Positions 55,216 through 56,823 of a stretch of DNA of 64,000 nucleotides are shown here, piece after piece. The notes under the pieces are model-generated. The model was not told the origin of the DNA. It was given only the letters and a program-made list of their open reading frames with translations, and searched no databases. The DNA is from Ionaspis alba (lineage: Eukaryota), in NCBI GenBank assembly GCA_964255285.1, contig CAXUUL010000008.1, positions 1 through 64,000 on the forward strand, in the 5' to 3' direction. Each line of letters starts with the position of its first letter. The stretch's first letter is position 1. A program made the translations under genes and the position numbers.

Positions 55216-56823
55216 ATGTCTGAAGCCCCTCCTCAGCTTGGAGACATTCCCCAATATTCCGAGATGAATATCCCGACCTTGTCGACCAGCACAGGCAGCA
55301 ACCAGGCTGCTGCTACATCAACTTCGAATGGTAATTCATCAGTACAGTACACGAAGAATGCCATTTACGGCAGTAAGGTGAGCTTCTGAGATTTCCCATA
55401 TCGGTCGAACGGTGCTGACCGGATCGTCCATCAGTCTTCTAGGCAGCTCGCGTGACCCAAGTTGATAATCTGATTTCTGTGCTCTAGATGCTCAATCGGC
55501 TGCAAATACCATCAGCAACCATCCAGCGACACAGAACGTCAAGGATACAGTCACCAACGGTCAGGTGTGTCTACTAGACGGAGCCTAGCTTCTGAAGCAT
55601 CTACGCTGACTTGTCTCTCTCTAGTTTTCCTCCAACAAGTATCCTTTGTTGTCCATGACCTGATGAGCAGTAGGACCTGTTGCGGAGACAGTCAAGGATC
55701 AGTCCGCAAAGACAACATCAGAATTCAACAAGCTTGCAGACTCACGCACCACTCCTGGCAGTACCGCCGCTACTGGCCAAAACTTGACTCGTATGATACA
55801 TTACTCTCCTAAGTGATTAGTACTGAACGACTTGAAGATTACCATTCATTCTTCTACAATCTTCTCAGTGTAAGGTGGTCTTGACGCAAAATTCGCAGCG
55901 CATGCTGATCGAAACAGTGGCAGCATCCCCGTGCAACCGCACTTTCCTTCTTAACAACCGTTCTATTCATCTTCGCTGCCCGTTATCTGCCTGCACTTCG
56001 CTGGTCGTTCAAGATTTTGTCATATGCACTTGGAGGTCGGTTACTGAAACCCATAGCTCCTCCTATGATTCTAATCGATGAGACAGTGACGGCTACCGCA
56101 GAGATAGCCGGAAAACTGGTACTCAATCAAGGGCTCGCGTCTTCCTTCCGACCCAAGAAATACTATACTATACCCAGAGAGTCGCTTGAAGCTTCTCTGG
56201 AAGATGTTGAGCAGCTCATCAACTTCTTTGTCATTGAATTCCAACGTGTTCTTTTCGCAGAGAACGTCTTCCATACACTAGCCGTAATTTATCCCTCCAT
56301 CACAGTCACCATTGATTCTTTGTAAGCAGCTAATACGTTACAGGCTTTTGCATCAGCTATGGTGTCTTACTGGCTCATCAAGTTCCTGCCACTTTGGGGT
56401 CTCTCGCTCATCGCCGTCTCAATGATATATCTTACACCCCTCATCTACATCAATAACAAGCAAATGATCGATGAACAGCTCAACAACGCCTCCAATGTTG
56501 TCAATTCCCAGGCTGCTCAAGTCAAGGATCTCGCCGGTCACCACGCCGGTCGTGCTTCTGAAACAGTCAAGGCATATGCGGGTGACTACACCGCCAAGGC
56601 GCAGGAATACATCGGAAGTGCTAGAGGGCGTTCTACCTCTCCCGAGGTATCCAGCAAGTCTACAGCTCAAAACCCGATGAAATCTGAGCCCGGTGCACCC
56701 CCGTCGTACAGTTCTTCTGACTTCCCACATGCTCCCAAGCAGGAGCCCACTGCCGGCGTAACATCCCACCAAGAGCAGTACGAGAAGTCGCAATTTGGCG
56801 GCCAAGCTGAGCCTGCGACCTAG
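55216..56823 (+). CDS. rtnA: Reticulon-like protein, 7 exons; first two intervening sequences are complex (stwintrons)
   Basis: Spliced translation ...HPATQNVKDTVTNGPVAETVKDQSAKT...ATGQNLTHYHSFFYNLLSWQHPRAT...RPKKYYTIPRESLE...INFFVIEFQRVLFAEN...YWLIKFLPLWGL..., with two long hydrophobic hairpins. Confidence 0.92.
55373..55487 (+). other. [D5,6] stwintron 1 (internal intron 55378-55434)
   Basis: GTAAG|GTGAGC..GCTGAC..CAG|T.. reconstitutes GTAAGT. Second branch TCTGAT and TAG acceptor at 55487. Confidence 0.8.
55560..55673 (+). other. [D5,6] stwintron 2 (internal intron 55565-55624)
   Basis: GTCAG|GTGTGT..GCTGAC..TAG|T.. reconstitutes GTCAGT. Second branch CCTGAT and CAGTAG acceptor at 55673. 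Confidence 0.8.

Follow-up and report, generated by a model that had tools for sequence, protein, structure and literature searches.

Two predicted [D5,6] stwintrons around a 72-nt exon in the rtnA gene of the lichen fungus Ionaspis alba: exon inclusion, possible skipping and a possible origin by duplication

Introduction

Can two adjacent complex introns of one gene be traced to the duplication of a single exon-plus-intron unit, and is the short exon between them the target of a splicing switch? Both questions are raised by a locus in a 64,000-nucleotide (nt) stretch of DNA from Ionaspis alba (NCBI GenBank assembly GCA_964255285.1, contig CAXUUL010000008.1, positions 1 to 64,000 of the forward strand), referred to below as the window. 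The locus (55216-56823, + strand) is, as judged from its sequence, the orthologue of rtnA, a gene for a reticulon-like, endoplasmic reticulum-associated protein, in a lichen-forming Lecanoromycete. An earlier note on this DNA had proposed that an exon and the spliceosomal twin intron (stwintron) following it are tandemly duplicated here and that the pair forms a frame-preserving exon-skipping switch.

In a stwintron of the [D5,6] type, the donor of one U2 intron is interrupted between its bases 5 and 6 by another, ordinary U2 intron. According to the available text of Kavalecz et al. (2019, Sci Rep 9:9940, PMC6616335), such a stwintron at rtnA position 1 is ancient and present in almost all Pezizomycotina; for many Dothideomycetes, Xylonomycetes and Lecanoromycetes, a further [D5,6] stwintron is predicted at position 2. 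Reverse transcription PCR (RT-PCR) verified the two in Helminthosporium solani, the only species in which the position-2 stwintron was confirmed. Table S1 of that paper lists 12 Lecanoromycete species, four of them with two stwintrons. The same source describes skipping of the intervening exon II in Aspergillus niger (<5% of clones) and Neurospora crassa (3 of 13 expressed sequence tags), where the inner intron takes a more distal acceptor and the outer donor, once rebuilt, is spliced to the acceptor of the second intervening sequence. Double rtnA stwintrons, the second stwintron of Lecanoromycetes and stwintron-mediated skipping of exon II are therefore already published (PMC6616335), and it is the origin and use of the pair that are considered here.

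Results

Two predicted [D5,6] stwintrons in the window

The gene comprises seven exons with a conceptual product of 390 amino acids (aa). The features around its first two intervening sequences (IS1 and IS2) are listed below; a slash marks a splice junction or the boundary between two abutting donors.

55216..55372, + strand: rtnA exon 1; ATG at 55216; 157 nt, ends in phase 1
From 55345, + strand: last nine codons of exon 1, QYTKNAIYG; CAG TAC ACG AAG AAT GCC ATT TAC GGC, then A
55373..55487, + strand: IS1, [D5,6] stwintron (stwintron 1); 115 nt, phase 1
55373-55377 plus 55435, + strand: external donor of IS1, GTAAG/T; external branch TCTGAT at 55469-55474, outer acceptor TAG at 55487
55378-55434, + strand: internal intron of IS1; 57 nt; donor GTGAGC, branch GCTGAC at 55414-55419, acceptor CAG (..CATCAG/T)
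55488..55559, + strand: rtnA exon 2 (exon II); 72 nt, phase 1 on both sides; encodes (N)AQSAANTISNHPATQNVKDTVTN
Up to 55559, + strand: end of exon II, QNVKDTVTN plus 1 nt; CAG AAC GTC AAG GAT ACA GTC ACC AAC, then G
55560..55673, + strand: IS2, predicted [D5,6] stwintron (stwintron 2); 114 nt, phase 1
55560-55564 plus 55625, + strand: external donor of IS2, GTCAG/T; branch-like CTGAT at 55660-55664, acceptor TAG at 55673
55565-55624, + strand: internal intron of IS2; 60 nt; donor GTGTGT, branch GCTGAC within CGCTGAC at 55604-55610, acceptor TAG (..CTCTAG/T)
55674..55790, + strand: rtnA exon 3; starts (G)PVAETVKDQSAKT; carries an extra weak copy of the motif xxVKDxxxx, without an intron behind that copy

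Direct reading of the sequence bore out the coordinates, codon registers and GTMAG GTGWG donors given in the earlier note, as well as the length and phase of exon II. The donors abut in both cases (GTAAG/GTGAGC at 55373 and GTCAG/GTGTGT at 55560), and a branch site and an acceptor were found for all four nested introns. Excision of the inner introns rebuilds an outer donor in each, and the one in IS1 fits the published GURWGH consensus. The motif GT.AGGT[AG][AT]G[ACT] occurs at 55373 and 55560 only in the whole 64-kb window, both strands included. When the interiors were shuffled, the full [D5,6] criteria were passed by 1 of 200,000 sequences for IS1 and 3 of 200,000 for IS2. The rarity of the motif and the shuffle counts together argue that the twin-intron layouts are not due to chance.

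Splicing would proceed in two steps, an order suggested by the sequence and by the published RT-PCR in other species. The inner introns (55378-55434 in stwintron 1, 55565-55624 in stwintron 2) would be removed first, restoring GTAAG/T or GTCAG/T, and the outer intron would then leave in a second standard reaction. IS2 ends in a tandem acceptor, CAGTAG, at 55668-55673; use of the CAG (55668-55670) would add a Val before Gly-Pro-Val-Ala. Orthologue sequences agree with the TAG.

Identity of the gene

A protein search with the exon-7 query returned 104 relatives, and the closest named ones were Lecanoromycete reticulon-like proteins with 72-77% identity, all carrying PF02453. In the window gene, three exon pieces matched PF02453 (Reticulon), with scores of 28.9, 30.2 and 17.6 bits; because the introns split the domain, none of them reaches the family cut-off of 31.8 bits by itself. 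The gene has six intervening sequences, as does the published A. nidulans rtnA model, and the N-terminus of its product can be aligned with those of Lecanoromycete orthologues. The domain matches and the Lecanoromycete relatives together identify the gene as the rtnA orthologue of a lichen fungus. The introns downstream of IS2 are canonical (47, 48, 51 and 60 nt), and the reticulon domain is encoded in the remainder of the gene.

55838..56823, + strand: rest of rtnA; exons 55838-55869, 55918-56035, 56087-56283 and 56344-56823 (stop TAG)

The locus in lichen relatives

A metagenome scan gave 278 relatives among 316 pattern matches, and 80 loci were fetched. Twenty-seven of the 80 were of lichen type; together with the window they provided 12 distinct sequences, which were used for the comparison at the DNA level. 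In all 12, IS1 is a [D5,6] stwintron of 111-115 nt (internal intron 54-58 nt, external intron 55-58 nt) and exon II is exactly 72 nt long. IS2 is more variable: it is of [D5,6] type in seven sequences and a canonical 52-nt intron in one, and in four it is absent, exon II being fused to exon 3. Since IS2 can be lost or canonical with exon II retained, it is the coding content of exon II that is conserved, and the second stwintron is dispensable. The nested IS2 layout is shared by the window with six other lichen sequences whose intron sequences are unrelated.

Two further features of these introns were observed. At L015:2276-2390 (also in L017), the inner acceptor of stwintron 1 is followed by G, so that the rebuilt outer donor would be GTAAG/G; the close relative L012 has T at this base. 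At L046:2448-2570 (also in L052), the outer intron of the second stwintron contains a 15-nt tandem duplication (14 of 15 positions identical), which, read by eye, doubles a branch-site-like CTAAT and provides a small example of tandem duplication inside these introns.

Inclusion or skipping of exon II

The skipping route put forward in the earlier note pairs the first internal donor (55378) with the second internal acceptor (55624). Its arithmetic holds on paper: the base at 55625 is T, and joining 55377 to 55625 would rebuild GTAAG/T. Removal of exon II from the coding sequence leaves the frame open with an A/GA (Arg) junction codon and shortens the product by 24 residues, from 390 to 366 aa, as had been stated. 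The rebuilt GTAAG/T follows automatically, because both stwintrons are of [D5,6] type with T at position +6, and so it is not independent evidence of function. An alternative distal acceptor is also available on paper, as the acceptor at 55487 is followed by A and would give GTAAG/A, the N. crassa type.

Exon II was included in 16 of 16 orthologous proteins encoded by short contigs with an uninterrupted open reading frame, which are presumably the products of spliced transcripts. No skipped isoform was found among the cluster members of 10 transcript-like orthologues, and all three full-length members of the P0007 cluster contain exon II. A search with the N-terminal 115 residues of P0008 returned 37 matches, 11 of them new, and the skipped form was absent among them. 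Logan DNA contigs aligned to the window showed no joint between 55300 and 55700; being DNA, they are silent on splicing. Of the two DNA runs, one covers the entire stretch in a single 78-kb contig and probably gave rise to this DNA; the other yielded identical pieces at low depth, together with orthologous exons of other organisms that have diverged.

Exon II is missing from eight of 54 aligned orthologue gene models (P0004, P0030, P0034, P0036, P0049, P0050, P0058 and P0059); these are predictions, not transcripts. Two of the eight show a ..YG-R-PVAE.. junction, as skipping would produce in the window. Of the first 70 proteins, 16 are not in this alignment of N-termini, because the regular expression did not match their HYHSFF-type anchor; they were inspected by eye.

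Exon II is thus most likely included in the main mRNA of this gene. By analogy with the published cases, a minor form lacking it is plausible here, and skipping, if it occurs, is probably a minor by-product rather than a switch. The switch claimed in the earlier note found no support.

Similarity of the two units

In the window itself, the coding tails preceding the two stwintrons (exon 1 versus exon II) are identical at 14 of 28 nt and 2 of 9 residues, and the additional weak motif copy in exon 3 matches the tail of exon 2 at 16 of 28 nt. Control comparisons of in-frame 28-mers gave a mean identity of 7.9 (s.d. 2.5). Across the 12 lichen DNA sequences, the anchored exon-tail identity ranges from 10 to 18 of 28 nt.

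At the level of the protein family, as read from aligned sequences, the shared peptide motif is real (QNAKDSVYN before stwintron 1 and QNVKDTVSN before stwintron 2). The orthologue consensus is S-V-Q-N-A-K-D-S-V-Y-N before the first stwintron and A-T-Q-N-V-K-D-T-V-S-N before the second. Profile-profile comparison of the exon-1 tail with exon II in 18 orthologues aligned 25 columns at P = 1.2e-4, flush at both intron junctions. The best match of the exon-II profile to the rest of the protein was the start of exon 3, at P = 0.085, which is not significant. For individual proteins, exon II compared with a length-matched end of exon 1 yielded z scores that ran from 0.4 to 6.0, and 13 of 18 proteins reached p <= 0.05. 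A lack of any similarity between the units in orthologues, named in the earlier note as an outcome that would speak against duplication, was consequently not what the alignments returned.

A position matrix built from the exon-II tail placed its best other site on the exon-1 tail in 17 of 36 proteins, on the first half of exon II in 12 and at unrelated sites in seven. Because the matrix also matches the first half of exon II, the region is best described as an array of short repeats; the N-terminal region consists of a run of degenerate repeats of 11-13 residues. Given such an array, duplication of the whole unit is not the sole possible explanation of the likeness.

The transcript-derived proteins P0072 and P0112 contain a perfect 13-residue tandem duplication (DTIANHPITKSTV twice) at residues ~78-105, in the region equivalent to exon II, which indicates that the repeat array still expands. 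In the Eurotiales proteins P0076, P0093 and P0097, exon II is only 8 residues long, [SN]-[IL]-[KR]-D-A-V-T-[NQ], and contains the K-D-x-V-x-N motif that also precedes both lichen stwintrons; their exon 1 ends in ..NG. Which of the lichen repeats this short exon II is matched with affects the presumed correspondence of intron positions across classes.

An invariant 11-mer in stwintron 1

The external intron of stwintron 1 contains an 11-mer that is preserved in all lichen-type loci.

55446..55456, + strand: 11-mer GCTCGCGTGAC, in the external intron of stwintron 1

The 11-mer has one exact copy in the window, and it lies 10-12 nt past the inner acceptor of stwintron 1. A single copy is present at the same place in every one of the 27 lichen-type loci and is missing from the other 53. 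Its positions include L001:2521, L003:2518, L007:2505, L010:2512, L012:2348, L015:2347, L020:2520, L033:2353, L046:2336, L051:2358 and L052:2336. The 11-mer is invariant in the 12 distinct sequences, for which the median pairwise identity over the stwintron-1 segment (<=190 nt each) is 57%, and the intron around it cannot be aligned.

No consensus RNA structure of stwintron 1 emerged from the 12 sequences (alifold -1.06), and no conserved complementary partner of the 11-mer was found at a consistent position. Literature matches to the 11-mer, its reverse complement and two 9-mers were unrelated (primers etc.) among the matches listed. The reverse complement contains ACGCG, which may resemble DNA sites of the MluI cell-cycle box (MCB) or unfolded protein response element (UPRE) type. 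The conservation may point to an unrecognised cis element, although this is not established.

Discussion

We consider it quite likely that the locus is best explained as a lichen rtnA gene with two [D5,6] stwintrons, in which exon II is mostly included, skipping is at most minor and duplication is a reasonable account of the pair. Exon II would contribute a conserved 24-residue stretch to the disordered N-terminus of the protein, and a re-pairing of the nested splice sites could leave it out of the mRNA, in the manner reported for A. niger and N. crassa. It is reasonable, but not proven, to derive the second unit from an old internal duplication in which the stwintron was carried along; taken by itself, this origin is possible, though we regard it with some doubt. 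The proposal of a tandem unit duplication thus stands in part. The coding parts are alike across 18 orthologues and in the same register, but the intron parts show no similarity and the likeness within the window is weak.

Several observations weigh against this explanation. Within the window coding sequence, 7 of 363 in-frame 28-mers match at 14 of 28 nt or better, and three of them reach 16. In the window protein, the matrix scores best not on the exon-1 tail but 13 residues upstream, on the first half of exon II. The intron parts are unlike (against shuffles, z = -1.5 for the two internal and z = -1.6 for the two external introns), and nothing beyond splice signals is shared between the two units. 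Absent intron similarity is expected if the duplication is very old and does not exclude it. One cross pair, external intron 1 versus internal intron 2, gave z = 3.6 (p = 0.006) as one of eight comparisons; it is predicted by no model. This likeness was treated as chance, as it is not visible by eye in L012 or L046. Stwintron 2 has no second copy of the 11-mer, which occurs once per locus and always in stwintron 1. As to the splice sites, the rebuilt donor of IS2 departs from the consensus with C at position 3, yet seven of the 12 lichen sequences have GTCAG/T as the donor of IS1. The T at position +6 is not absolute, since G takes its place behind the first internal acceptor of L015.

The regularity of the locus can be read in other ways. 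If the unit were tandemly duplicated and exon II skipped under regulation, the donor at 55378 would be joined to the acceptor at 55624 and the rebuilt GTAAG/T to the acceptor at 55673. Two adjacent intervening sequences of the same phase, register and rare [D5,6] class, coding parts that are similar at the family level and flush at the introns, and a skip that preserves the frame are all consistent with such a switch, and a closely similar two-step skip in the same gene is described for A. niger and N. crassa in the available text of PMC6616335. The eight gene models without exon II, two of them with the expected junction, point in the same direction as far as predictions can. Nevertheless, a regulated switch appears improbable. 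None of the 16 transcript-derived proteins of relatives skips exon II, and the loss of IS2 with exon II retained in 4 of 12 lichen sequences, together with the canonical IS2 of one other, makes the pair dispensable. The 247-nt first step would have to pass over three nearer acceptors, and at least two further routes would end in the same mRNA (55377^55488, with GTAAG/A as in N. crassa, and the one-step 55372^55674); the introns, moreover, have no common sequence. Little probability is also given to the view that the twin appearance of IS2 (55560-55673) is incidental and that its 114 nt are spliced out in one step, as a plain intron with the donor GTCAGG. IS2 is indeed bounded by GT..AG and is taken as one intron by gene predictors, and one complex intron of Lipomyces can be removed either way (PMC7138796, available text). 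As a donor, GTCAGG misses the consensus at positions 3 and 6, unlike the nested GTGTGT, which conforms to it; a complete inner branch site and an acceptor followed by T are present, which shuffled interiors reproduced only at the rate given above. The nested layout recurs in six other lichen sequences of unrelated intron sequence, and PMC6616335 reports RT-PCR confirmation of both H. solani stwintrons.

A possible, if tentative, account dispenses with unit duplication altogether. The N-terminal array of 11-13-residue repeats would expand and contract, some other cause would have placed the introns at corresponding repeat ends, and donor duplication would have stwintronised intron 2 on its own. 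The matrix match in the first half of exon II (13-residue offset; best site in 12 of 36 proteins, the window included), the weak matrix match at the start of exon 3, the recent 13-residue duplication in P0072/P0112 and the Sordariomycete-like orthologues with a single repeat as exon II are all compatible with it, and in many taxa IS2 is either canonical or missing. For the same gene in Lipomyces, small donor duplications have been proposed to turn a canonical intron into a [D] stwintron (PMC7138796). Against it, the whole of exon II is far closer to the exon-1 tail than to the rest of the protein, and the independent origin of stwintrons of the same rare [D5,6] type, phase and register in adjacent introns would be unparsimonious.

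Comparison with known systems places the window close to the published double-stwintron rtnA genes: the gene, intron positions 1 and 2, phase 1 and the [D5,6] nesting are the same. In Table S1 of PMC6616335, the stwintrons of Lasallia hispanica, L. pustulata and Umbilicaria muehlenbergii measure 107-113 nt, and subtraction of coordinates puts the exon II between them at 72 nt; for Gyalolechia flavorubescens it comes to 60 nt. The stwintrons of the window are 115 and 114 nt long, and its exon II likewise has 72 nt. It differs from the published Lecanoromycetes in being a further species and in the rebuilt IS2 donor GTCAG/T. The 55378-55624 route, as analysed here on paper, is a variant of the A. 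niger/N. crassa mechanism. In both, a distal acceptor rebuilds GUAAG/N, the IS2 acceptor is paired with it and a symmetric exon II is dropped; in A. niger and N. crassa, IS2 is canonical and exon II is 15 or 33 nt long, whereas in the window IS2 is a predicted stwintron and the distal acceptor is its inner acceptor.

Two other systems concern the ways in which stwintrons arise and spread. In Lipomyces reticulon-like genes, the available text of a 2020 study (Sci Rep, PMC7138796) describes the conversion of canonical introns into [D] stwintrons through donor duplications of 4-7 nt ("stwintronisation"). The gene family is the same, and the process accounts for abutting donors of the form GT.AG GT..G arising inside an existing intron; those duplications lie within one intron, in contrast to the exon-plus-intron unit proposed for the window. 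The "sister" [D1,2] stwintrons of Hypoxylaceae and Xylariaceae (PMC9024468 and PMC12403724, available text) likewise concern stwintron propagation. These copies are alike in intron sequence and have spread to new positions in many genes, whereas the pair in the window shares no sequence and lies in one gene. The idea of a unit duplication for the rtnA stwintrons was not found stated in the available texts on stwintrons and duplication, PMC6616335 and PMC7138796 included. The main text of PMC6616335 does not discuss similarity between the two units, and the stem "duplicat" occurs there once, in "done in duplicate".

The preferred explanation, of two [D5,6] stwintrons around a mostly included exon II, can be extended to a joint reading of the locus, which we regard as rather unlikely as a whole. 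In it, a two-repeat exon tail and its [D5,6] stwintron would have been tandemly duplicated in an early ancestor of the Pezizomycotina, giving rise at once to exon II and the position-2 stwintron; separately, the 11-mer GCTCGCGTGAC of lichen fungi might govern the second splicing step or the choice between inclusion and skipping of exon II. If this were true, segmental duplication, as opposed to insertion or stwintronisation, would be the means by which the stwintron spread.

With the window, a published case gains one more species, and the knowledge of stwintrons is left unchanged. What it may contribute lies in two details. A perfectly conserved 11-mer inside the otherwise free-drifting intron of the "most ancient" stwintron may interest specialists in intron evolution. 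The homologous peptide repeats that precede the adjacent rtnA stwintrons in the same register suggest a testable, though not established, origin for the second stwintron of this gene.

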